From NCBI GenBank assembly GCA_964447495.1, contig CAYUTF010000008.1, positions 6,935-22,427 on the forward strand: 15,493 nt of DNA, given 5' to 3'. Shown here one piece after another: positions 1,551-14,171 of this stretch. Within the stretch, counting starts at the first letter, position 1. The number at the start of each line of letters is the position of its first letter. This stretch comes from an uncultured archaeon (GTDB lineage Archaea; Asgardarchaeota; Lokiarchaeia; Sigyniarchaeales; SOKP01). The translations under genes and the position numbers were made by a program. The notes beneath the pieces were generated by a model. That model had not been told where the DNA came from and did no database searches. It saw only the letters and a program-made list of their open reading frames with translations.

Positions 1551-1700
1551 ATGCAAGAAGTAATAAATTTGCTTTTGATGAGTGTTTTTACTTTTATTAT
1601 TGGGGCTATAGTTGGATTGATTATTGGTGGGATAGTGAAACGAACTCGAGTTCGCAAAGCAAGAAATGAGTTGAAAGATGAACAAAGAAAATTGTTGTAG
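1551..1700 (+). CDS. small membrane protein (ORF open from 1512)
   Basis: AGGTGG 1541-1546 before ATG 1551; hydrophobic helix with GxxxG motifs followed by basic KRTRVRK. Confidence 0.65.
   Translation: MQEVINLLLMSVFTFIIGAIVGLIIGGIVKRTRVRKARNELKDEQRKLL
1641..1658. repeat. dispersed palindromic element copy 1 (CGAACTCGAGTTCGCAAA)
   Basis: 14-bp perfect palindrome 1641-1654; exact 18-mer also at 5580-5597 and 11438-11455. Confidence 0.9.
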
Positions 1701-1968
1701 TTTAAGAATAGATGATATGAAGGGGTCATTTTTGTGTAAGGCTACAGAAGATCTTGGATCTGGTCAGATGAGATGTATTGGGTTTAAGCGTGATGATAAA
1801 GAAGGATGTAGTAATGGATGTAAGTATAATATTATGTTTTCATGTCATAATATTGAGTTGCAATTGAAAACATTAGATGAATTGATAGAAAAATTGGGTG
1901 TTTTAAAGGGACAATTGGTTATAGAATTTGGTAAAAAGATGTATGAGCAAGTAAATGGTAATTCATAA
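1678..1968 (+). CDS. Cys-rich hypothetical protein
   Basis: 96-aa ORF, several Cys then a helical C-terminus. Confidence 0.65.
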   Translation: MNKENCCSLRIDDMKGSFLCKATEDLGSGQMRCIGFKRDDKEGCSNGCKYNIMFSCHNIELQLKTLDELIEKLGVLKGQLVIEFGKKMYEQVNGNS

Positions 1969-2167
1969 TGTGGTCTGTGATGGGTGTGGGAAAGAATGTG
2001 TTGGATTTCCTCCTCTTGAATTGAATAAGAGGGGGAGCAATAGGGATAAACTACATAAGATACGGTATATGTATTCTCTTTGTGGGTGGAGAGTGAACCT
2101 TCCTGGTGGAAAAGATTATTGTCCAGAATGTTGGGAGAAGATGAAAGATGAAGAAAAGCATTTTTGA
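1955..2167 (+). CDS. zinc-ribbon hypothetical protein
   Basis: CDGCG...KDYCPEC. Confidence 0.7.
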   Translation: MVIHNVVCDGCGKECVGFPPLELNKRGSNRDKLHKIRYMYSLCGWRVNLPGGKDYCPECWEKMKDEEKHF

Positions 2168-2432
2168 TATAAAACAAGATCGGCCTGCAAAGAGAATACA
2201 ACAGGCTCTTTATAAAGAGAGAGACAAAGATGGAAGTAAATTGTTGTCACCATTAGAATGGCAACAGGCTGAAATAAATGTATTATGGAATGTCGTGAAT
2301 GATGAGAGAAAGAAGATTGGGAAGGGGCCAATTAGAATAACTAGAATAGAGGATGTTGAAAAAACTGCCTTTGGTCATATTGATTATGTACATAAAATAG
2401 CAATCTATTGTGAAGAATTGGTTTATGAGTAA
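2148..2432 (+). CDS. hypothetical phage protein
   Basis: 94-aa ORF with GHIDYVHKIAIYCEEL C-terminal motif. Confidence 0.7.
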   Translation: MKKSIFDIKQDRPAKRIQQALYKERDKDGSKLLSPLEWQQAEINVLWNVVNDERKKIGKGPIRITRIEDVEKTAFGHIDYVHKIAIYCEELVYE

Positions 2433-2435
2433 GTT

Positions 2436-2651
2436 ATGAAAAGGAGATTTGATATAGGTGATTCTGTAATAGTTGATGATGAAAATTCTATATTGAATCA
2501 AAGGCATGGTTTTGTTAGTGGATATAATGAATCACGTGGTTATTATGTTGAATTCAAGAAAACAATAACGATAATAGGTGGAAAGAATTTTTATTATTCT
2601 TGGTTTAAAGATGAACAATTGAGGGATGGAAAAGGACCATGTCTTTATTGA
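2436..2651 (+). CDS. small beta-barrel (SH3/KOW-like) hypothetical protein
   Basis: FDIGDSVIV...GFVSGY...YYVEF pattern. Confidence 0.6.
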   Translation: MKRRFDIGDSVIVDDENSILNQRHGFVSGYNESRGYYVEFKKTITIIGGKNFYYSWFKDEQLRDGKGPCLY

Positions 2652-3167
2652 TTGGAGAAAAAGATGAATAAAGTTGTGAAATTAGAAGAATTGTCATTAG
2701 AAGAATTAATAAAGTATCATAATAGAAAGATGCTTGAAATGTTCAATTTAGTTGAGTCTTTATTGAACAAGGCAGCGTGCAAGAGATCAGATGGGGATAT
2801 TATTTGGGTTCATCCGATTGAGTTTGTAAGACTTTATACGTCTATAGAAGAATTGAATGAAAAAATTCGTCTTATATTGAAAGAGAATTCTATTTTAAGA
2901 GACAAAAAAATAAGGGAAGATGCAATTTTGACTTCTCAAGCAATGCGAGTTTCAGAAAGTGTTGCTGAAGAACTTACGGAATTAAGAAATAAAATTGTTT
3001 TTTTTAAAAATATAATAAAGTTAGTTGATGAATTAGATGTTGATTGTAAAATTTTTAATAAAATTATAGAGATGTATACAAAAAAAGGTTTTAAGATTGA
3101 TTCCTTTATGGAAGATTTGATTAAATTTTGGCATAATGGTAAGTATGCTGTAAATAAACATATTTAA
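2652..3167 (+). CDS. helical/coiled-coil hypothetical protein (start possibly ATG 2664)
   Basis: 171-aa ORF, L/I/E/K-rich; GGAG precedes ATG 2664. Confidence 0.7.
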   Translation: MEKKMNKVVKLEELSLEELIKYHNRKMLEMFNLVESLLNKAACKRSDGDIIWVHPIEFVRLYTSIEELNEKIRLILKENSILRDKKIREDAILTSQAMRVSESVAEELTELRNKIVFFKNIIKLVDELDVDCKIFNKIIEMYTKKGFKIDSFMEDLIKFWHNGKYAVNKHI

Positions 3168-3189
3168 AGTATAATGGAGTCTGGTTAAC

Positions 3190-3537
3190 ATGATAATAGT
3201 TGCAATAGTTTGTGATAATTGTGGGCGTCAATACAGTCAAAGAGAATTCAAGGAAGATATTGTTGATGATTTGCTTGATGCTATCGAGACAAGAGGAATT
3301 AACAAGGATTTATGTAATGATTGTTCATTGGAAATATCTAAAGATAAACCAATGTGGGAAGATATTACTCTTGCAGAAGGAATAGATATACGGTTGTGTA
3401 GGGCACCATCGATAAAATCTATGGCTTTTGAATGTTCGAAGAGTGTTTTTGAAAAAGATGCTGATATTTGTAAATATTATTGTGACAGAGAGATTGGTGA
3501 TACAGAATTTGGTCTTTGTTTATTCAAAGATGAATAA
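3190..3537 (+). CDS. Cys-rich zinc-binding hypothetical protein
   Basis: GGAG upstream; CDNCG...KDLCNDC plus a second Cys cluster. Confidence 0.75.
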   Translation: MIIVAIVCDNCGRQYSQREFKEDIVDDLLDAIETRGINKDLCNDCSLEISKDKPMWEDITLAEGIDIRLCRAPSIKSMAFECSKSVFEKDADICKYYCDREIGDTEFGLCLFKDE

Positions 3538-3650
3538 AAATAATATAATTTGATGAATAAATATTCGTTATTTTATGGAAACTTCGGGATATAGAAAAAA
3601 CGGATGAAAACTGTGAATAATTATTCATAAAATATAAAAAGAGAGTTGAG

Positions 3651-3872
3651 ATGTTAGATAAAATACGAAAAAGTGATTTAAAGAAAGGTATGTGGGTTGC
3701 TTATATTGCTAATCAAGTAAATTATGGTGGGGAAATAGAAGTTGGAAGAGTGAAAAGTTGGAATGATAAGTTTGTTTTTGTAGTATATAAATGTGCTGAA
3801 AATTGGGATCGGTATGAAGATTATACTGGAGTTGCTACAAAAATAGAGGATTTAGTTAGATGGGAAAGGTAG
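3651..3872 (+). CDS. hypothetical phage protein (SH3-like)
   Basis: 73-aa ORF; LKKGMWVAY...EVGRVKSWNDKFVFVVY. Confidence 0.7.
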   Translation: MLDKIRKSDLKKGMWVAYIANQVNYGGEIEVGRVKSWNDKFVFVVYKCAENWDRYEDYTGVATKIEDLVRWER

Positions 3873-4060
3873 TTAAATGTTGGAAATACATACGTCCATA
3901 TGGTGAATATGAAAAAACAGAATTAGAGATTTTAGCAGAATATTTTGAATGTTGGTCTGCTGAGATGAGAAAGAATGGAAGAGAAGATCTTATTTCTGAA
4001 AAAAGATGTATAGATGATTGGGTTGCTATAAATTGTGCTTGGGAAGTGAAAGATGAATAA
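3860..4060 (+). CDS. hypothetical phage protein
   Basis: GAGGA upstream; 66-aa Trp-rich ORF. Confidence 0.7.
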   Translation: MGKVVKCWKYIRPYGEYEKTELEILAEYFECWSAEMRKNGREDLISEKRCIDDWVAINCAWEVKDE

Positions 4061-4292
4061 AAGAAAAGAAGAAATTTTTGAATCGGTACCTAAATGGGCT
4101 GATTTGTATGAGGTATCTAATGATACGGTTAAGATGAGAAGTTGTGCTGGTCCTTTTTCACCATTAACTAATTCTCATATGATATTAGGTCCACCAATTT
4201 GTACCTTTAGATGTAAAAAATGTATGTCGATATATGATGAAGGTGATGTAATAGGAGACAGAAAGTGTCCAAGTTGTGGATATGGAGGATAG
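4053..4292 (+). CDS. zinc-ribbon hypothetical protein
   Basis: FRCKKC...KCPSCG at the C-terminus; overlaps upstream stop. Confidence 0.7.
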   Translation: MNKRKEEIFESVPKWADLYEVSNDTVKMRSCAGPFSPLTNSHMILGPPICTFRCKKCMSIYDEGDVIGDRKCPSCGYGG

Positions 4293-4557
4293 TTTGAACG
4301 TTAAGGAGGCTAAGAAGGCAAAGAATAAGTGGAAGAAAGTTGCACCATCTATGGGGGAGGATGAAGCTAATGATATATTGTTGTCTTCTATGAAGTGGTT
4401 ATCAAGACATGTTGATGGAGATGTTAAGGAAAGCAGAGAGCTCGGTGAGATGCTTCGTGATAAAGGTATTTGGTATATGTTTGTTGAAGGAGATGAACAG
4501 AGGCCGATATTTAAGACTAAAAGGGGAAAGTTTAGAAGGATGGAATGGCCTAATTGA
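4276..4557 (+). CDS. hypothetical protein (start possibly TTG 4294)
   Basis: GGAGG 4284-4288 precedes in-frame TTG 4294. Confidence 0.65.
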   Translation: MDMEDSLNVKEAKKAKNKWKKVAPSMGEDEANDILLSSMKWLSRHVDGDVKESRELGEMLRDKGIWYMFVEGDEQRPIFKTKRGKFRRMEWPN

Positions 4558-4572
4558 GTAAAGGTTTTTAAG

Positions 4573-4860
4573 ATGGATGGTAAATGGTTGAAAGATTATT
4601 CTTTAGGGCCAGATTGGTTCAAGGAAGGTGTTGATAAGGTTAGAAAAGAGTTTGATGAAAAAAGGCAAATTATATATGAAAAGTATGTTTTTAAGGACCC
4701 TAATAATGGCAAGATTTTATTGATTGATGGTAAGGTTCATTTGTCGAAAGGTGCTGAAAAGAAATATACTAATGAAATGTCAGAAGCTGTTAAGAAATAT
4801 GATGAAGAAATTAATTTGTTGAAAGATAAATTATTTATTTATTTTTCATTGATATGGTGA
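4573..4860 (+). CDS. hypothetical protein
   Basis: AAGGT upstream; 95-aa charged helical ORF. Confidence 0.7.
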   Translation: MDGKWLKDYSLGPDWFKEGVDKVRKEFDEKRQIIYEKYVFKDPNNGKILLIDGKVHLSKGAEKKYTNEMSEAVKKYDEEINLLKDKLFIYFSLIW

Positions 4861-4867
4861 AAATAAG

Positions 4868-5113
4868 ATGAATAAGATAGATTGGCCTAGTGGTAAAAAG
4901 ATGCATGTTCAGAATATTGTTCTTGTACCACCTAATGGACGTCATGTTCATTCTGAATTGGTGGAAGAGGCTTACAAAGAATATTGTCAGATGTTTGGAA
5001 AAAATCAAACGTTAGAAAGGTTACAAGAGAGGGGTGGATTTGATATAGTTGAATTGGCTACTTTTTTGTATATGAGGATAAAGAGACTTGAGCAAGATGT
5101 TGCAAAAAAATAG
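4868..5113 (+). CDS. hypothetical phage protein
   Basis: 81 aa; QTLERLQERGGF motif. Confidence 0.7.
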   Translation: MNKIDWPSGKKMHVQNIVLVPPNGRHVHSELVEEAYKEYCQMFGKNQTLERLQERGGFDIVELATFLYMRIKRLEQDVAKK

Positions 5114-5143
5114 TTGACAAATTCTATATTATATATAATATAT
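5113..5143 (+). promoter_or_regulatory. sigma70-type promoter P2
   Basis: TTGACA 5114-5119, TAATAT 5136-5141 (16-bp spacer; overlapping TATAAT 5134-5139), directly after a stop codon. Confidence 0.7.
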
Positions 5144-5246
5144 CTGTATGGATTTCCAGTTAGATTCTGGATGTGGAGTGAAAATGAAAAATGAAAATAG
5201 ACAACATGAGTATCGTCCAGATGGATGGTTTTAGGTATCAGATTAG

Positions 5247-5570
5247 ATGATTTCTTATTTTAGAAATATATATATTATTCATATTCTTATTGTTTTTTTA
5301 TGGTTGTTGAATTTTCTTGATGCTGTTTTTACGTGGTATTGGTTGAACAATGGTGAAGAAGAGTTGAACTGGATTATGAGGATATTATTTGATGTTCATC
5401 CAATTTTGTTTTTTGTTTGCAAGGTAGGTTTTGTGACTATTTTTTTGATAATGTTGAAAAGGTGGTCGAAAGAATATTTTCTTGCCAGAGTAGGAATTGT
5501 ATTGTGTTCTGTTGTCTATTCTTTTGTTATTTTATGGCATTTTTGTGGTGTATATTTGTGTTTTAGGTGA
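5247..5570 (+). CDS. multi-pass membrane protein, DUF5658-like
   Basis: Three hydrophobic helices; LNFLDAVFT...GEEELNWIM resembles the recalled N-x-x-D-x-x-x-T...E-x-N-P-x-M family motif. Confidence 0.7.
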   Translation: MISYFRNIYIIHILIVFLWLLNFLDAVFTWYWLNNGEEELNWIMRILFDVHPILFFVCKVGFVTIFLIMLKRWSKEYFLARVGIVLCSVVYSFVILWHFCGVYLCFR

Positions 5571-5576
5571 TTAGGA

Positions 5577-5597
5577 TTGCGAACTCGAGTTCGCAAA
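5577..5597. repeat. dispersed palindromic element copy 2
   Basis: 20-bp perfect palindrome TTGCGAACTCGAGTTCGCAA 5577-5596, intergenic, directly before GAGG RBS 5599-5602. Confidence 0.9.
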
Positions 5598-5607
5598 AGA
5601 GGATAAA

Positions 5608-5955
5608 ATGTATTCAGATGGATATGTAGTAAGAGAAGAAATAGGTAAAAAGAGTGATGATGTTGCTCGGTATATTCCTATGAATTGTGAGACAATTCAG
5701 ATTGTTCTTTATGTTGGATGTGGTTGTGAAGATAATATATTTGATATTATTGAAGGTAAGCCATGTTTATTTGTTAGAAAGAATAAAAAAGCTACTATGT
5801 ATCTTCAGCGTATAATTGATTCTTGTTATACGTTTGACATTATTGCTTTTCAAAAGAATGGAGATGATTATTGTGATGAAGTGATGGTTGTTAAGGAAGG
5901 ATGTATACCATGGCATAATGATAATCCATCATTAAATCGTAGTTATCATAAATAA
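5608..5955 (+). CDS. hypothetical protein
   Basis: GAGGA RBS, 115-aa ORF. Confidence 0.7.
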   Translation: MYSDGYVVREEIGKKSDDVARYIPMNCETIQIVLYVGCGCEDNIFDIIEGKPCLFVRKNKKATMYLQRIIDSCYTFDIIAFQKNGDDYCDEVMVVKEGCIPWHNDNPSLNRSYHK

Positions 5956-5967
5956 TGGAGGAGAATA

Positions 5968-6216
5968 ATGTTTGATATATTTAGAAAGCCACATAATGAT
6001 AAAAAATATAGGCAGGTTTTTCTTGGTTACAATGATAGACGATTGGTGGGATGGGTAGATAACAGAATGGCCATGAAGAGGAATTTGGTTAGAGTGAAGG
6101 GATATGATGGTGTATGGGAGATACTTGAAGTATTTGATGATGTAATAGTGGATGATGGGAATTTGGATACTTTATCTTCTGAGTATAGGCATCATAGAGA
6201 AAGAACAGATGTATGA
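5968..6216 (+). CDS. hypothetical phage protein
   Basis: GGAGG RBS, 82-aa ORF. Confidence 0.75.
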   Translation: MFDIFRKPHNDKKYRQVFLGYNDRRLVGWVDNRMAMKRNLVRVKGYDGVWEILEVFDDVIVDDGNLDTLSSEYRHHRERTDV

Positions 6217-6365
6217 TATTTTTAGACCAAAAATATTTTGTAAAAAAGAAAGTTTTAAGAAGTAAAATTTGTACAGATTGTGGTGGTTTTTTTACTAAAA
6301 CTGAAGATGGATATTTATGTAATTCGTGTGGATTTGAGCTTGATAAAGATGGGAGTAGTAAATAA
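6213..6365 (+). CDS. small zinc-ribbon protein (50 aa)
   Basis: ATGA overlap; MIFLDQKYFVKKKVLRSKICTDCGGFFTKTEDGYLCNSCGFELDKDGSSK*; below the ORF-track cutoff. Confidence 0.65.
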   Translation: MIFLDQKYFVKKKVLRSKICTDCGGFFTKTEDGYLCNSCGFELDKDGSSK

Positions 6366-6416
6366 TATTTTTATGGTGTGATTACTATTAAGAACAAATA
6401 ATAGATAGGAATATAA

Positions 6417-6752
6417 GTGTCAAATTTGGAATTAAAATGTGTTGTTACTAGGAAAGAGAAAAAGACTGTTTCTGAAATTTTTTCATTGATTAAAGAACCT
6501 TGGTGTGAGGTTGTAGTTGAAATTAAAAAAATGAATATTAGTGTGGTTTCATATTTTGAGAAAGATGCTGTGGTTTCAAAAATAGATGTTTGGGAAAAGG
6601 CAAATGCACTAGAAGACTTAATTGATGATATAGAATATTATTCTGGTGAAGTTATGCAATTTACTGGAGATGGTGTTTGGTTGAAGTTTAAATTGTCAGA
6701 AGATATACTTAGAAGGGTTTTAGAAAAACTTTTGAGGAAAAACTATGGATAG
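6417..6752 (+). CDS. hypothetical protein
   Basis: AGGA upstream of GTG; 111 aa. Confidence 0.7.
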   Translation: MSNLELKCVVTRKEKKTVSEIFSLIKEPWCEVVVEIKKMNISVVSYFEKDAVVSKIDVWEKANALEDLIDDIEYYSGEVMQFTGDGVWLKFKLSEDILRRVLEKLLRKNYG

Positions 6753-7161
6753 GAAAGAAAGCATAAGAATTCATTGGGATTGGTATGGATATTGTAGGAC
6801 ATGCAAATTTTGGGATAGTCATGAGGATAGAAAGAAACTAGAAGGTAGATGTGATTATGAAAAATCACCTAATTACAATGAAGAAGTATGGAGTGAAGGA
6901 CATTGTAAATGTTGGGAAAGTTTTGATCCTGAAATTGCTAATTTTGTTGTGAATGTAGTTCAAAGAAGACCTAAAAGTGAAGGGGTATGGTTCTATAAGA
7001 ACAATTATGATGGTCATGTAGATTCAGCTCTTGTTGGCAGGAGATATGGAAGGCATAGTGGGCCACTGCAAGTATTTCATGTGGAAAATGATGATTGGTG
7101 TAATTTTGATGCTTTTGAAAAAGCTGAGGTAGCTAGATGGATGGAGAAAGCAAAACCATAA
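6745..7161 (+). CDS. Cys-rich two-domain hypothetical protein
   Basis: GAGGA RBS; CRTCKFW...GRC...CKCWE N-terminal domain followed by a PKSEGVWFY domain. Confidence 0.75.
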   Translation: MDRKESIRIHWDWYGYCRTCKFWDSHEDRKKLEGRCDYEKSPNYNEEVWSEGHCKCWESFDPEIANFVVNVVQRRPKSEGVWFYKNNYDGHVDSALVGRRYGRHSGPLQVFHVENDDWCNFDAFEKAEVARWMEKAKP

Positions 7162-7319
7162 AACTTGAAGCAAAATGTTCGGAGTGTGGAGAATGGTCAG
7201 AAATATCATGGTTTGAGTTTGAATTTTATGCTGGTTATTGGTGGATAGAATCTGGTCCATGTCCACAATGTGGTGAAGCTGTTAGAGTTGATGAATTGAA
7301 GACAAGAAGTAGAAGATGA
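7137..7319 (+). CDS. zinc-ribbon hypothetical protein
   Basis: GAGGT upstream; CSECG...CPQCG. Confidence 0.65.
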   Translation: MDGESKTIKLEAKCSECGEWSEISWFEFEFYAGYWWIESGPCPQCGEAVRVDELKTRSRR

Positions 7320-7338
7320 GCATAAAAGAGCATAAGGA

Positions 7339-7848
7339 ATGGTCAAAGTGATCAATTGTAAAGAATTGATGTATTTCTATGGTTGGATTTTTGTGAGACC
7401 ACGTAGGTGGTTTTTTATGAATATATGTAGAAATAATAAATTGCGTCTTTGGCCAAAAAAGGAATATGGTTATTGGCTTTGGCCTAATATGCATTGGATT
7501 GTTTTATATTATACTTTGTGGAAATTTTTTAAATGGATGTATTATGAGGCTTGGCGATTTTTTTGTAATTGGGATGGTGGATATAGAAATACTTATCCAT
7601 GGATTGCTAGATTTATTCATTGGATTGGGCGTACAACAGTTGGTGTTCATATATCCACGGTAGAGTGTTGGCATTGTGGTTTTGAGGCTGGAAATCAGGT
7701 TGATTTATCAGATGATGATAGTGGAACGACATTTATTTTAGAAGATTCTGGTTCTTATGGTACGCAGGATGGAACATGTCATTGGTTTGAAGGTACAACA
7801 ATTTGTCCAATATGTGGATATAGAGAACACTATGAGGATAGTGATTAG
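7339..7848 (+). CDS. Trp-rich hypothetical protein with C-terminal zinc ribbon
   Basis: 169 aa; CWHCG...CPICG. Confidence 0.7.
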   Translation: MVKVINCKELMYFYGWIFVRPRRWFFMNICRNNKLRLWPKKEYGYWLWPNMHWIVLYYTLWKFFKWMYYEAWRFFCNWDGGYRNTYPWIARFIHWIGRTTVGVHISTVECWHCGFEAGNQVDLSDDDSGTTFILEDSGSYGTQDGTCHWFEGTTICPICGYREHYEDSD

Positions 7849-7863
7849 AAGGAGTATTTAATA

Positions 7864-8193
7864 ATGATGAATCCAGAAACAAATAGATTTGAAGAAGTGC
7901 ATCCAAAGGTTGAGAGTGCTCTTGAACAATTTGCTAAAAAAATGCCTGATATGTCTGGGTATGTTCGTCATGATGGGTCTGATGTGCCTAAAGGATATCC
8001 TGTTTTTGGGATAGGAGAAGAGTTTCAACTTAAAGGATATCGATTCAAGGTTAAAGCGATAAAAGAAGATGAAATTACTTTTGAACCAGTTGGTCCAGTA
8101 CCTGTATCGAAAATACGCAGTGTGGTATATACAAAAAAAGGTACTGGGTCTTCAAAGAAGAAAAAGAAAAGTGGCAGTAGAAATAAGAGATAA
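7864..8193 (+). CDS. hypothetical protein with basic C-terminal tail
   Basis: AAGGAG RBS; ends SSKKKKKSGSRNKR. Confidence 0.75.
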   Translation: MMNPETNRFEEVHPKVESALEQFAKKMPDMSGYVRHDGSDVPKGYPVFGIGEEFQLKGYRFKVKAIKEDEITFEPVGPVPVSKIRSVVYTKKGTGSSKKKKKSGSRNKR

Positions 8194-8194
8194 A

Positions 8195-8371
8195 ATGTTG
8201 TCAGATAAAGCAATTTGTTGGACATGTAACAAGTTTGTATATTCTGGAGAGTTAGATATTGGATATTGTTATTATCATGATAGAAATGTGAAACAAGATT
8301 CACTTTGTATTCATCATCCAGATTATGTTGAAAGTGATTTTATTGATATAGAGGATGAAGATGAAAGTTGA
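8195..8371 (+). CDS. small Cys-rich protein (3' part of track ORF 8069..8371)
   Basis: In-frame ATG 8195 just after the upstream stop; CWTC...GYC...C. Confidence 0.6.
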   Translation: MLSDKAICWTCNKFVYSGELDIGYCYYHDRNVKQDSLCIHHPDYVESDFIDIEDEDES

Positions 8372-8648
8372 TACAATTGAAGATTTAAAAAAAATAGTTG
8401 GTAAAAAAGTTTATTTAGGTGCTTGGAACAACAATGATAATGATTTTGATACTTTTGAATTAGAAGTAGGAAGTATAATTATTGGACACAAAAGATATAA
8501 AAATGAACTTGGGCCAGTAGAAGTTTTTATAAAGCCTATTTTAAAAGATGATCCTTGGGAAGTAATTGGTGAAGTTCCTATTGATTTTGTTTGGAATACT
8601 CGTGAAGAGGCATTGGATTTTATAGCGGAATATGAAAGACAAGATTAA
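8355..8648 (+). CDS. hypothetical protein
   Basis: 97 aa; GAGGA precedes the second Met; WNTREEA motif. Confidence 0.7.
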   Translation: MKMKVDTIEDLKKIVGKKVYLGAWNNNDNDFDTFELEVGSIIIGHKRYKNELGPVEVFIKPILKDDPWEVIGEVPIDFVWNTREEALDFIAEYERQD

Positions 8649-8679
8649 TGCATGTGAATGTTAGATTAAAGTATTATAT

Positions 8680-9525
8680 ATGACTTATTTTAATAGAAAA
8701 ATTGCCAGGGTGTTTCCAAGGAAGACTAGGGCTACACCTATTGATGAATTTTCTTTTTTTGATGCTCCTGGTTTGTTTTGTCCAGAATTTGATGAGGTGC
8801 ATGTATCAGTTACGTTTTCATGGGATATTAGGTATGCTGAATGGCTAGCTCGGCAATGGGAAAGAATTGCACCAGTTAAAATTGGTGGTCCAGCTATTGG
8901 GACAAGAGGTATGGATTTTAATCCTGGATTATATATTCGTAATGGATATGTAATAACGTCTAGAGGATGTCCTAATAAGTGTTGGTTTTGTGATGTTTGG
9001 AAACGGGATGGTAATATTAGAGAATTGCCAATTAAAAATGGATGGAATGTTTTAGATGATAATTTATTTGCATGTTCTGAAGGTCATATTAGATCTGTTT
9101 TTGATATGCTGAATAAACAGAATGAAAAAGTTGAATTTACTGGTGGTCTTGAGGCTGCACGTTTAAAAGATTGGCATATAGATTTATTAGTTAATTTAAA
9201 ACCTAATCAAATGTTTTTTGCTTATGATACTAAAGATGATTATGAACCACTTATTGAAGCAGGAAAGAAATTATTAAAAGCTGGGTGGAGTTTGAAAAGT
9301 AGAGTTTTAAGAGCTTATGTCTTGATTGGATACAAAGGAGATACAATTGAATATGCTGAGAAGAGGTTGTTAGATACATTGAATGCTGGTTTTATTCCAA
9401 TGGCTATGTTGTGGAGAAATAAAGATGGTAAAACAGATTATAATTGGAGGAAATTTCAGCGTTTGTGGGCTAGACCAGCAATAATGTATAGTAAAATAAA
9501 GGAAATATGTAGAAGTGAAGGTTAA
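8680..9525 (+). CDS. radical SAM protein (class B/B12-dependent-like core)
   Basis: TSRGCPNKCWFC (CxxxCxxC), LDDNL, FTGGLE, FAYD, YVLIGY; N-terminal VHVSVTFSW...IGGPA resembles a reduced cobalamin-binding module. Confidence 0.9.
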   Translation: MTYFNRKIARVFPRKTRATPIDEFSFFDAPGLFCPEFDEVHVSVTFSWDIRYAEWLARQWERIAPVKIGGPAIGTRGMDFNPGLYIRNGYVITSRGCPNKCWFCDVWKRDGNIRELPIKNGWNVLDDNLFACSEGHIRSVFDMLNKQNEKVEFTGGLEAARLKDWHIDLLVNLKPNQMFFAYDTKDDYEPLIEAGKKLLKAGWSLKSRVLRAYVLIGYKGDTIEYAEKRLLDTLNAGFIPMAMLWRNKDGKTDYNWRKFQRLWARPAIMYSKIKEICRSEG

Positions 9526-9760
9526 TTTTAATGGTATAAGGATAAATTTAGCAAGAGCATATAATGGTTTGTTTGAGCAATCTGAGTCAATAGATAATGA
9601 GAGGATTGAAATAAGCAAAGATAGACTTGCTGAGATGTGTGAAATGGTAGGTGCATTTTTGTGTATTTATAACGAAGGAGATGAATCTTTTCGTGATTTA
9701 TCAAGTGATGTTAAATTGAGAGACCCATATACTGGTAGATGGGAAGAAGATGATGGTTGA
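9515..9760 (+). CDS. hypothetical protein
   Basis: 81-aa ORF coupled to the radical SAM gene. Confidence 0.65.
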   Translation: MKVNFNGIRINLARAYNGLFEQSESIDNERIEISKDRLAEMCEMVGAFLCIYNEGDESFRDLSSDVKLRDPYTGRWEEDDG

Positions 9761-10046
9761 TAATAATTATTGTATGACATGTGAAAGTGTAAGGAGGGTT
9801 GCATCTGAAGATTTAGAAAAAGAAGGATATGTGGGTTGTAATATCTTGAGTGGTATTAGAGGTGTTATTTGTTATAATAAAGATGACTTGAATAAAATAA
9901 TAGGTAATGTTGTTGCTATGGGATGGGTTGATTTGGGTTCTCGTCCTGGTAGTAAAAGTAGTGGTATGATAACAAATGAACAATTGATAATAAAAGGTGT
10001 TATTTCTTGTCCATGGTTTGAATTGAATTGGAGGAATAGAAGATGA
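9750..10046 (+). CDS. Cys-rich hypothetical protein
   Basis: CMTC...VGC...CPWFE. Confidence 0.7.
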   Translation: MMVDNNYCMTCESVRRVASEDLEKEGYVGCNILSGIRGVICYNKDDLNKIIGNVVAMGWVDLGSRPGSKSSGMITNEQLIIKGVISCPWFELNWRNRR

Positions 10047-10258
10047 GTTGTTGTAAAGATAAGAGATATATAATTGTGAAGATAGAAGGAATACATAGGG
10101 TTATTGATGTGTTGGAGGAGGAATTAAAAGGATCATATATGGATTTGCCATCAGCGTATCAAGCGATTTGTGGGTTTTTACTTGAAGACCAGAAGAATAA
10201 AAAATGTAAAAAACATAAAGGGGATAATGTTCGTCGTGTTCTTTTGGAATCACCATAA
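10043..10258 (+). CDS. hypothetical protein
   Basis: GGAGG RBS, ATGA overlap. Confidence 0.65.
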   Translation: MSCCKDKRYIIVKIEGIHRVIDVLEEELKGSYMDLPSAYQAICGFLLEDQKNKKCKKHKGDNVRRVLLESP

Positions 10259-10286
10259 AATATGATTGATGAATGTTGGGTGAGTT

Positions 10287-10595
10287 GTGAATAGATTTGT
10301 AATGATGAAAGATGGTTTTTGGAAATGGGATATTGGTGGGTTGAGTTTTTTGATTGGTAGTACAAGAGAAAAAAAGACATATTTAGCATTATGGGTAACA
10401 ACTATTTCGATATTGAATTATAGAATGGTGGAAAGGAGAATTGTTGAAGGTAATTATGGATTGGTGTTAAAGAATTTAGAGAAAAAAGCATCAATTCTTT
10501 TGGTTAAAAGTAAAATTAATGGTGAAAAAAATTTTATTGAATATATAGATAAAAGACAAGAAGTAATGGATAGTTTGATGCGTATTAGGTATTGA
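10287..10595 (+). CDS. hypothetical protein
   Basis: 102-aa ORF, start uncertain. Confidence 0.55.
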   Translation: MNRFVMMKDGFWKWDIGGLSFLIGSTREKKTYLALWVTTISILNYRMVERRIVEGNYGLVLKNLEKKASILLVKSKINGEKNFIEYIDKRQEVMDSLMRIRY

Positions 10596-10596
10596 T

Positions 10597-11157
10597 ATGA
10601 ATAAATTGGAAGATATGTCTAAAGCATTTGATTCATTAACTGGTGTTTGTAATAATTGTGGTTATACAGATGATAATATAGGTCGAAAAGAATGTTTAAT
10701 GTGTGGAGCAAAGGCTTATGATGTAAAATTGCATGTTTTGGATAAAGATAGACCTAGTTTTCAAAAAATATATATGAATCTTGCGATTGATATTTCTAAA
10801 CGATCTACTTGTTCTAGGAGACAAGTAGGTTGTGTAATATCTTCTAGTGATTTTAGAAGGATTCTTGCTGTTGGATATAATGGTAATGCTTCTGGGTTGC
10901 CTAATAAGTGTGACGCACCAAATGTTTCTTCAAGGTGTGGATGCATTCATGCTGAGGAAAATGCTTGTATTTCTTGTGTTGAGCCAAGGAATACAAAGAA
11001 AATAGTTTTTGTTACGGTTTTTCCTTGTAAGATGTGTGCAAAAAGATTTGTGCAACTTGGTGGGGTTAAGCAAGTATATTATTTAGATAATTATCATGAT
11101 GAAGAAGCAAAATTTGTTTTTGATATGGCTGGAATTAAGTTTTGTCGTTTGTTGTAG
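10597..11157 (+). CDS. dCMP deaminase with N-terminal zinc-ribbon extension
   Basis: RPSF..YM.LA...KRSTC.RRQVGCVI, GYNG, catalytic HAE and PCKMC motifs. Confidence 0.92.
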   Translation: MNKLEDMSKAFDSLTGVCNNCGYTDDNIGRKECLMCGAKAYDVKLHVLDKDRPSFQKIYMNLAIDISKRSTCSRRQVGCVISSSDFRRILAVGYNGNASGLPNKCDAPNVSSRCGCIHAEENACISCVEPRNTKKIVFVTVFPCKMCAKRFVQLGGVKQVYYLDNYHDEEAKFVFDMAGIKFCRLL

Positions 11158-11433
11158 TTGATGGTGAATATAAGGAAAAGTTATATGAAGATTAAGCATA
11201 GAGATATTTTTACAAAAGAACAAATTGAAGAATTTGTTGGTGAATTTGTTACAATCAGTTATAAAGGTTGTTTAGATATGAAAGTTTTGGTAACTAGGCT
11301 TTTTAAGGGAAGTATAGGTTTTGATTCTAAAGAAGAATGGATATTAGGTGTTATTGAAATTGGAAAAGGATTTTTTGAGATACCGATTGCTATTTCTAAT
11401 ATATTAGAGATAAAGAAATTAGTAGTTGATTAG
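11158..11433 (+). CDS. hypothetical protein (start possibly ATG 11185)
   Basis: AAGGA precedes in-frame ATG 11185. Confidence 0.65.
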   Translation: MMVNIRKSYMKIKHRDIFTKEQIEEFVGEFVTISYKGCLDMKVLVTRLFKGSIGFDSKEEWILGVIEIGKGFFEIPIAISNILEIKKLVVD

Positions 11434-11436
11434 TTG

Positions 11437-11455
11437 GCGAACTCGAGTTCGCAAA
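11437..11455. repeat. dispersed palindromic element copy 3
   Basis: 16-bp perfect palindrome GCGAACTCGAGTTCGC 11437-11452 between TAG stop (11431-11433) and GAGGT RBS (11456-11460). Confidence 0.9.
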
Positions 11456-11464
11456 GAGGTTGTT

Positions 11465-12112
11465 ATGTCGAGACGAGTTGTTGTTTGGTCTGGAGGTGCT
11501 GATTCTACATATCTTCTTCATTGGTATGCTATTTATTCTTCTATACAGAATCCTGTTCATGCTATTACGGTTGATTCTCATCCTCAATTAAATAAGAAAT
11601 TTATGGCTGCACAAAGAGCAGCTAGAAGTAGGTATTTGAAGTTTGCTGAGAAATCTGGGTTGCACATAGAAGTTCATACAGTTAGTCAAGATTATAGCGA
11701 AAAAACATTGATTGGAATTGGTAAAAATGTATCGGGTCAACCTATGATTTGGTTGTGTTCGATAATGCCATTTATTCAAGATGATGATATGGTTTGTTTT
11801 TCATATATTTTTGAAGATGGAATTTGGCATCATAAAAAAGAATTTCAGGATGTTTTTTATAGTATATGTAGATTGAAAAATATTGATGCAACTTTGGAAT
11901 TTCCACTTGAGGAATTTAGAAAATATCAAATTCTTAAAAGGTTATCTGAATATGAAATAAAAGATAACATGTGGTGGTCATGTGAAGAACCAAAAAATAA
12001 AAAGCCATGTGGTGTTTGTTATAAGTGCTGTGAGCTTAAATTGGCTGATATAAAATTTGAAATGGAAAAGAAGAATCCACGGTCACCGTTTTTTGAAGGA
12101 GAAAAGAAATGA
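11465..12112 (+). CDS. queC: QueC-like PP-loop ATPase (7-cyano-7-deazaguanine synthase family, divergent)
   Basis: VVWSGGADST PP-loop, KYQI, C-terminal SCEEP...PCGVCYKC zinc site; start moved from 11426 to ATG 11465 based on the GAGGT RBS. Confidence 0.8.
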   Translation: MSRRVVVWSGGADSTYLLHWYAIYSSIQNPVHAITVDSHPQLNKKFMAAQRAARSRYLKFAEKSGLHIEVHTVSQDYSEKTLIGIGKNVSGQPMIWLCSIMPFIQDDDMVCFSYIFEDGIWHHKKEFQDVFYSICRLKNIDATLEFPLEEFRKYQILKRLSEYEIKDNMWWSCEEPKNKKPCGVCYKCCELKLADIKFEMEKKNPRSPFFEGEKK

Positions 12113-13445: not shown

Positions 13446-14155
13446 AAATTGTAGAACCATCAGTTGAAGTTATATTTTGGGCTCCTGAAGATAGTGGAAC
13501 ATTAGAAGAAGGAATTGAGAAAGCAGCAAGAACTTGTTACAAAAGTGAAGGGAAAATTGGTGAAGGAACAGCGGATAAACTGATTAGGAAACTCAGAAAA
13601 AGTGGTCACCATGCTATGCTTGAATTTGGTTATATAATGGCAAGGATTATTGCAGACCGGGGTTTGAGTCATGAGTTGGTAAGGCATAGATTGGCTTCCT
13701 TTGCACAGGAATCTACAAGATATTGTAATTACAATTCAGAAAGATTTGATTCGGAAATTTCTGTGATAGAGCCACCAGGGTTGACATGGCAACAAAGAGA
13801 TGAATGGCATATAGCTATGGATGATGCTGAAAGACATTATATGACTTTGATGAAAATTGGTGCTAAGCCACAAATAGCTAGGTCGGTTCTCCCGATAGGG
13901 TTAAAGACTGAGATTGTTATTGGGGCAAATCCGAGGGAATGGAGGCATATTTTCAAGATGAGGTGTGACAAGCATGCTCACCCTATAATTAGGAGTATAA
14001 TGATAGAGATTTTGTTGCAGTGTCGTGATAAATATCCTGCTATTTTTGATGATCTTTTTGATGATTTGCCTGATGAACTTATAAATAAATGGTCGGAATT
14101 AAAAGATAAAACTATGAGAGAAGTGATTATGAAACATGTTGTTGACAAAACATGA
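13442..14155 (+). CDS. thyX: FAD-dependent thymidylate synthase
   Basis: ARTCYKS, GHHAMLEF, signature ELVRHRLASFAQESTRY (RHRx7SxR), ARSVLP, NPREWRHIFKMRC..HAHP. Confidence 0.97.
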   Translation: MKIVEPSVEVIFWAPEDSGTLEEGIEKAARTCYKSEGKIGEGTADKLIRKLRKSGHHAMLEFGYIMARIIADRGLSHELVRHRLASFAQESTRYCNYNSERFDSEISVIEPPGLTWQQRDEWHIAMDDAERHYMTLMKIGAKPQIARSVLPIGLKTEIVIGANPREWRHIFKMRCDKHAHPIIRSIMIEILLQCRDKYPAIFDDLFDDLPDELINKWSELKDKTMREVIMKHVVDKT

Positions 14156-14171
14156 ATATGCTGTAATATAT
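14141..14171 (+). promoter_or_regulatory. sigma70-type promoter P3
   Basis: TTGACA 14142-14147, TAATAT 14164-14169 (16-bp spacer); overlaps the thyX 3' end. Confidence 0.65.

Follow-up and report, generated by a model that had tools for sequence, protein, structure and literature searches.

LexA operators of Gram-positive bacteria are short palindromes, given as GAAC-N4-GTTC for Bacillus subtilis, Mycobacterium tuberculosis and Gram-positives generally, and as CGAACAAATGTTCG for Staphylococcus aureus (PMC3323433, PMC11442139). In GIL01, a phage of Bacillus thuringiensis, the host LexA together with the phage protein gp7 serves as the repressor, and the phage protein gp6, which consists of a LexA domain only, is an activator (PMC6182141). 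Dispersed palindromes have been described for Cluster O mycobacteriophages, in which the 17-bp sequence TGTTCGG-N3-CCGAACA, present in 34 copies in Corndog, is presumed to be recognised by a dimeric binder; the same source defines the start-associated sequences of Cluster K mycobacteriophages by their tight link to translation starts (PMC4351075). Here, a stretch of 15,493 nucleotides (the window; positions 6935-22427 of contig C8 in the binned assembly G000, written G000:C8:6935-22427) was analysed, in which an 18-bp palindromic element, CGAACTCGAGTTCGCAAA, occurs three times. The element is part of an array that extends over the genome of a large phage and over the genomes of its relatives. 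Judged by its sequence, a LexA-type operator array is the most fitting description.

The array and the phage that carries it

The 18-mer is found without mismatch at window positions 1641-1658, 5580-5597 and 11438-11455 on the plus strand and did not occur in any of 200 dinucleotide-preserving shuffles; the one-mismatch hits of the motif search on the minus strand are the identical palindromes in reverse reading. By reading of the sequence, the perfect palindrome is 14 bp long in copy 1, 20 bp in copy 2 (5577-5596) and 16 bp in copy 3. Copy 1 of the 16-bp box, ACGAACTCGAGTTCGC, lies at 1640-1655 (G000:C8:8574-8589) in the last codons of the open reading frame (ORF) 1512-1700, about 20-22 nt ahead of the ATG at 1678. 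Copies 2 and 3 both read GCGAACTCGAGTTCGC and lie in the gaps between neighbouring genes. The former (5579-5594) is located 8 nt past the stop codon of ORF 5247-5570, which encodes a DUF5658 protein, and is followed by AAAAGAGG and the ATG of ORF 5608-5955, while the latter (11437-11452) is located 3 nt past the stop codon of ORF 11158-11433 and is followed by AAAGAGG and the ATG at 11465. Their common context is TGATTAG-N4/N3-GCGAACTCGAGTTCGC-AAAA/AAA-GAGG-N5-ATG. All long ORFs of the window are on the plus strand, which is poor in C (10.7% across the phage contigs; GC skew of the window 0.42-0.62). None of the copies overlaps with the three best sigma-70-like sites of the window, all on the plus strand, namely TTGACA-N17-TAATAT at 472-500 and TTGACA-N16-TAATAT at 5114-5141 and 14142-14169, for which the next box follows 1.17 kb, 465 nt and 3.0 kb downstream, in the last case beyond the window. 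The sequence-only reading, made earlier from the letters of the window, had described these features correctly, and its proposal of a genome-wide cis-element was borne out by 29 copies in the phage and 22-33 copies in complete or near-complete relatives.

The window belongs to a set of four contigs (C8, C16, C26 and C80) with a total length of 168 kb, a GC content of 33-35% and an absolute GC skew of 0.32-0.40. We take these contigs as a large bacteriophage, a myovirus of about 170 kb, which was mis-binned with an archaeal genome, because a transfer-messenger RNA (tmRNA), a sigma factor, Shine-Dalgarno (SD) sites and TTGACA promoters point to a bacterial host. The encoded proteins include a T4-type portal, a prohead protease and proteins of the tail sheath, tail tube and baseplate; further genes are those for a sigma-70-like factor, a DnaB helicase, a RecA/UvsX homologue, a CCA-adding enzyme, an RNA ligase and a NYN-domain protein. 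Additionally, the contigs carry 23 tRNA genes and the tmRNA gene (L123:9133-9480). The gene order over all four contigs agrees with that of complete relatives. No near-identical phage record was found, the portals of cultured phages being at most 30% identical, and among the 20 runs from 15 studies that were listed for the phage there was no RNA run. Contigs from four other studies cover the window region, with many strain differences and gene-sized insertions or deletions (indels). An adapter or chimera artefact, against which the sequence-only reading had advised a check, is ruled out, because identical sites are present in independent IMG/VR contigs and in the contigs of these four studies across the region.

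The core of the element, CGAACTCGAGTTCG, has 28 occurrences in the phage, or 29 with one TGAAC variant, in the form RCGAAC-TCGA-GTTCGY, and all of them are on the four phage contigs. It is absent from the remaining 219 contigs of G000 (3.64 Mb); a single bare AACTCGAGTT without the arms was found on C71. A position-by-position count over the boxes of this phage placed all information within W-R-CGAACTCGAGTTCG-Y-W (16-18 bp) and revealed no conserved flank, -10 or -35 element around them. As to translation starts, 16 of the 29 copies are followed within about 30 nt by an SD word, 1-12 nt from the box, and by a start codon, and others lie before promoters or inside genes; in relatives, 54 of 113 sites have both signals at this distance. 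The box centre is mostly located about 20-25 nt ahead of the start codon with no promoter between them. TTGACA boxes follow three copies of the array, one copy begins 2 nt after the 3' end of a tRNA, and two copies are located far inside genes. The distance from one box to the next (25 gaps) has a mean of 5.6 kb and a coefficient of variation of 0.49 and is more regular than expected by chance (P 0.0002; 5000 random trials). A recurrent type of promoter-like site with the extended -35 element TTGACAAA and the -10 element TAnnAT was found 22 times, the three sites of the window included. These sites are probably early promoters, and each of them has a box 0.3-7 kb downstream where the contig permits.

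Several other functions were considered for the box. An intrinsic terminator is ruled out by the scarcity of U tracts, which follow 1 of 29 sites in this phage and 4 of 113 sites in relatives. A promoter for the phage sigma factor is ruled out by the lack of a conserved flank and the closeness to start codons, and a target of methylation or restriction (CTCGAG, TCGA) by the fact that relatives keep the arms and change the centre.

Conservation and placement of the sites in relatives

Relatives, all of them uncultured, were gathered by scanning viral contigs and by searching with the portal, and span portal identities from 85% to 38% and GC contents of 33-67%. The pattern CGAAC-N4-GTTCG was present in 51 of 60 portal-related loci, with 137 sites in 740 kb, whereas a control with scrambled arms gave 3. 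Copy numbers of 33, 30, 22 and 26 were found in three relatives with complete genomes (157-195 kb, with terminal repeats) and in one that is 91% complete, and the reversed control gave 0-1 copies in these genomes; G005, the most distant relative, has no boxes. The centre is lineage-specific, with TCGA in the phage of the window and TCAA/TTGA, CTGG/CCAG/CCGG, TCCA/TGGA or ACGT elsewhere. Where it is asymmetric (TCAA/TTGA, CTGG/CCAG, TCCA/TGGA), both orientations relative to the gene direction occur within one genome, as in G004 with six TTGA and five TCAA sites at co-directional junctions. An apparent excess of TCAA (27 versus 8) consists mostly of one orthologous in-gene site that is repeated over loci.

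The sites are all-or-none perfect and are under strong purifying selection throughout the family. Perfect copies number 22-33 per genome as compared with 0-0.2 expected from shuffles, while copies with one arm mismatch are at the shuffle level (1, 1, 10, 11 and 5 seen in five genomes versus 0.8-7 expected). In 11 comparisons of divergent orthologous sites, 480 of 726 flanking positions were identical as compared with 153 of 154 positions of the 14-mer core, the sole change being G to A in the centre. A few sites show decay, for instance the copy at C26 7731, which is imperfect both here and in locus L096, with different bases. The box positions are stable across relatives at 50% portal identity. 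Moreover, the sites sit near gene boundaries, in the typical case after a stop codon and ahead of the next ribosome-binding site: of the 139 sites in the five genomes with boxes, 18 are 150 nt or more inside an open frame versus 50% of random positions (p 6e-20).

Proposed identity of the binder and rival explanations

Both arms of CGAAC-N4-GTTCG are perfect in 28 of the 29 copies of this phage, and arms and spacing are those of the Gram-positive LexA operator, the Cheo box. The sequence-only reading had seen the class of a repressor operator but had missed this identity. Three independent observations connect the array with LexA. Two of the relatives, G003 and G004, each encode a protein made up solely of a LexA DNA-binding domain (96 aa in G004), and a profile of these two proteins matched solved LexA structures with E values of 6e-11 to 1.5e-6. 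The G004 gene is in an operon with a TTGACA promoter that overlaps a box, the one promoter-box overlap observed. For the G004 protein, a word-indexed search returned only 2 hits and an exhaustive search 12,607 at E <= 0.001, many of them short. In the Dehalococcoidales bin G006, 25 boxes are present on a phage contig similar to G004, and just two perfect boxes lie outside this contig. One of them is on contig C66, and the other, CGAACTAATGTTCG, lies 1 nt before the SD word (GGGAGG) of a full-length lexA gene, after a TTGACA-N17-TATGTT promoter, with box, SD word and ATG arranged as at the phage sites; the co-binning of this bacterium with the phage contig is weak evidence of a host. In twenty cellular relatives of the G006 bacterium, the number of perfect boxes is 0-11 per genome (1-4.3 Mb) and resembles that of the reversed control, and the phages are therefore enriched roughly hundred-fold per base.

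We tentatively favour the reading that a dimer of the LexA family, most likely the host LexA, binds the boxes as operators in double-stranded DNA, which would act as multi-site roadblocks. Recognition as double-stranded DNA by a LexA-type dimer is preferred because of the symmetry of the sites, the lack of an orientation, arms that stay invariant without compensatory change over a 34-point range of GC content, and the match to a known operator. Of the three mechanisms that the sequence-only reading had offered, the dimeric-repressor roadblock fits best. Each site would be bound by a dimer with a LexA-type winged helix; we infer that this is most likely the host's own LexA, and in one sub-lineage the phage protein with the LexA DNA-binding domain may take part as well. 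A bound dimer would then be present about every 6 kb at a gene junction as a roadblock or operator, and its simplest effect before a start codon would be the block of elongating RNA polymerase. If so, transcription past the first genes after each constitutive promoter would have to await the removal of LexA, either by the SOS state or by a phage-made trigger.

Several observations weigh against this explanation. A LexA-like domain was not found in this phage, G001, G002 and G007, for this phage in searches with Pfam, a profile of the two phage proteins and a 162-domain profile, and in one with HMMER filters off, and no S24 peptidase was found on the phage contigs. The binned archaeal genome yielded no LexA domain and has boxes at background level. 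Each phage has a uniform centre (TCGA, TCAA, CTGG or another), unlike the A/T-rich centres TAAT and AAAT of the cellular boxes encountered here, and cellular LexA regulons tolerate mismatches, whereas the phage sites are all-or-none. Contacts with promoters are few: an exact TTGACA lies 4-11 nt downstream of only 10 of 138 boxes, and none of the 22 TTGACR-N16-18-TAnnnT sites of this phage overlaps with a box. Furthermore, the distant relative L237/G007 (portal identity 41%) has an array of similar spacing made of a different palindrome, GTCCAAT-YR-ATTGGAC, with 12 perfect and 4 one-mismatch copies, confined to phage contigs (C13, C48, C49 and C52). This palindrome matches no LexA motif named in the extracts of the literature that were consulted; the Bacteroidetes forms GGA-N5-TCC and CTAA-N5-TTAG were tried and gave no match (PMC8565304).

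The different-arm array, the uniform centres, the missing LexA gene and the few promoter contacts keep alive the option of a phage-encoded binder with co-evolving specificity. According to this rather unlikely alternative, a dimeric DNA-binding protein outside the LexA family would serve as global regulator or genome organiser, comparable to KorB on the 12 dispersed operators of plasmid RK2 or to the dimeric binder presumed for the Cluster O palindromes, and the sites would resemble the LexA box by convergence or secondarily. It would account for a centre that is uniform per phage and differs among lineages, for the recurrence of architecture and spacing with other arms on the phage contigs of L237/G007, for perfect sites unlike those of cellular regulons and for the regular spacing. 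Three small helix-turn-helix proteins of this phage (L122:6925-7200, L123:3777-4007 and L123:4007-4270) are weak candidates. Likewise weak candidates are the products of two genes, one ASCH-like and one of 340 aa, which have a box ahead of them in each of the five genomes with boxes and are not present in the box-less G005; this co-absence has little weight, because G005 is without 12 of the 26 families common to G001-G004. None of these 26 families, defined at BLASTP level, is an evident DNA binder, and no recognisable DNA-binding protein is common to all box-bearing phages. Moreover, the match of ten arm bases plus spacing and the LexA-domain genes of two relatives would have to be coincidence. 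It is more improbable still that the boxes are decoys, of which dozens with maximal affinity, multiplied by replication, would drain the host LexA and turn on SOS without DNA damage, with the junctions as the sites of least harm. Perfect consensus arms in every copy, a high copy number, irrelevant orientation, few promoter-linked boxes and some intragenic copies would all suit a decoy. On the other side, the conservation of individual sites (153 of 154 core positions) exceeds what a 1-in-29 share in titration would need, even spacing would be useless, and the literature searches gave no paper on such a DNA decoy array.

The two further mechanisms of the sequence-only reading lost ground. In one of them, the transcript would form the hairpin GCGAAC-UCGA-GUUCGC before the ribosome-binding site as a signal for processing, stability or translation, which might be read by the NYN-domain nuclease of the phage. 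All copies are sense-transcribed, the 16 copies just ahead of an SD word and the one behind a tRNA are placed accordingly, and the phage encodes an RNA ligase next to the NYN-domain protein in its repertoire. The predicted stems reach only -5 to -10 kcal/mol. For copy 2, the value of -10 kcal/mol corresponds to a z score of -2.8, but folding of copies 1 and 3 is not stronger than that of shuffled sequences (z 0.12 and -0.89). The arms are invariant from 33% to 67% GC without compensatory pairs, the complementary loops UCAA and UUGA are used about equally, and the scarce U tracts do not fit intrinsic terminators. A stem of 5-7 bp seems too short for RNase III. Taken together, we give an RNA element only a slight chance. 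The least probable of the explanations, and a very doubtful one, is a recombination or mobility site for the shuffling of gene cassettes, like the T4-type PeSL motifs or REP elements. Its support is anecdotal and consists of a few indels that abut boxes: relative to L090, a Tad6 gene (~365 nt) has been inserted precisely behind a box and ahead of the next ribosome-binding site, a 480-nt skip begins 9 nt after copy 1, and loose contig ends are found at 1638 and 11458. A centre that is uniform within a genome is also what strand exchange between sites would need. Three of the about 52 boundaries listed, at three of about 50 junctions, are however at chance level, and among these boundaries indel ends were not commoner at boxes than at other gene junctions. 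The stable positions at 50% portal identity speak against mobility, boxes in both orientations would scramble the genome under recombination, and the box comes without an attached promoter. Neither a Y1 transposase nor a recombinase was found in this phage, and the REP-associated Y1_Tnp (RAYT) domain was absent from its 278 scanned ORFs.

Neighbouring genes and comparison with known systems

The genes that follow copies 1 and 2 in the window (1678-1968, plus strand, 96 aa, and 5608-5955, plus strand, 115 aa) gave no family match, and the gene after copy 3 (11465-12112, plus strand, 215 aa) has a partial QueC match over residues 126-189 (E 1.3e-8). An operon that is preceded by a box is conserved in this phage (G000:C26 reverse-complement 28331-31292), in G004 (147065-150586) and also in G001, G002 and G003. 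It contains genes for an ASCH-like protein of 116-129 aa, a protein of 298-367 aa that looks Cas4-like by eye only, a RuvC-like protein and a protein of 285-311 aa. The ASCH-like protein showed weak ASCH matches in two of five members (best E 0.015), and no solved relative was found. The Tad6 (anti-Thoeris) gene is located at G000:C16 reverse-complement 5506-5859 (L127:9606-9959, minus strand) and is absent from L090. An ORF with NUMOD-like repeats, homing-endonuclease-like in a reading by eye (G000:C8:52480-52640), ends inside a box (...TNSSS stop) and carries an 870-nt indel in the relative L145 (L145:3380-4400). An 883-aa protein of the phage (L122:12834-15482, equal to G000:C8:31834-34482) matches the shoulder and repeat domains of the major vault protein (E 4e-26). 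In G004, the DnaB helicase (136515-139124; L197:16515-19121) is split by an intein with a LAGLIDADG domain, and the genes for an IS200/IS605 TnpA and TnpB are present, the IS200 TnpA gene being inside an IS element. Contigs C7, C77 and C91 of G000 (66, 15 and 12 kb) have a GC content of 44-47% and an absolute GC skew of 0.25-0.32, which sets them apart from the other contigs of the bin, and carry no box array; they may represent another foreign element.

A second palindrome, TGTTTCACGTGAAACA, which we take to be the canonical bacterial parS site of ParB, is present in three perfect copies (G000:C8:39865-39880, C16:38137-38152 and C16:11197-11212) and in one copy with one mismatch (C26:2617-2632). 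The perfect copies are all intergenic, and two of them lie 25 and 66 nt from a LexA-type box. The sequence is absent from G001-G005 and from the rest of G000. It is conceivable, although unlikely, that a whole family of repressor-less large myoviruses with a T4-type portal is placed under the SOS repressor of the host, so that dozens of perfect LexA operators, one for each operon-sized segment, would hold the phage silent or paused as long as the cell is healthy and set it free upon LexA cleavage, and in the phage of the window host ParB would partition the silent genome via parS; this would amount to episomal, LexA-gated dormancy in phages which are usually held to be strictly virulent.

The kind of site is known, and its genome-wide deployment is new; searches of the literature exclusive of supplements gave no report of genome-wide LexA-box arrays in large phages. 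If host LexA or a LexA-like phage protein does bind these sites, widespread uncultured phages of salt marsh and sediment would couple the whole genome to the DNA-damage state of the host via 20-30 operators, and the principle of GIL01, in which the host repressor is also the phage repressor, would extend to phages of 170 kb. The dispersed palindromes of other phages that have so far lacked an explanation, e.g. those of Cluster O, would thereby gain one that can be tested. Because LexA motifs are specific to bacterial phyla, the array could moreover serve as a sequence signature from which the host group of uncultured phages is deduced.

In comparison with the SOS operators of Gram-positive LexA (DinR), the phage boxes have identical arms and spacing and the box-SD-ATG layout found at the lexA gene of G006. 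Cellular operators are few, often imperfect and located at SOS promoters, whereas the phages have 22-33 perfect sites over about 170 kb, mostly away from promoters. The comparison of the sequence-only reading with stoperators holds in one respect, since Cluster A stoperators are likewise dozens of repressor sites in short co-directional gaps, thought to block elongation. It fails in another, as stoperators lack symmetry and follow the direction of transcription, and the present sites are palindromes without orientation. Stoperators are bound by an immunity repressor that the phage itself encodes (PMC4351075); no repressor was identified among the scanned ORFs of this phage. The T4-type PeSL cassettes share repeated junction motifs in variable regions; judging by the titles of the reports they are composite promoter-terminator elements (PMC2839356, PMC4122927), unlike the box, which has no promoter and occurs also in conserved structural modules. 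The palindromes of Cluster O are alike in invariant arms, a variable asymmetric centre in both orientations and more than 30 copies, many of which lie in short intergenic gaps and about one third in genes. They differ in sequence and spacing and belong to siphoviruses of about 70 kb, and in the available extracts their authors link no known host regulator to them. GIL01 shares host-type LexA boxes and, as in G003 and G004, a phage gene for the LexA DNA-binding domain alone. It is a tectivirus of 15 kb with few boxes within two promoters, and its gp6 recognises another palindrome. The array described here extends over whole genomes of large myoviruses, and the phage of the window yielded no LexA-like gene. 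GIL01 is the closest mechanistic precedent and the Cluster O palindromes are the closest formal precedent for the array.

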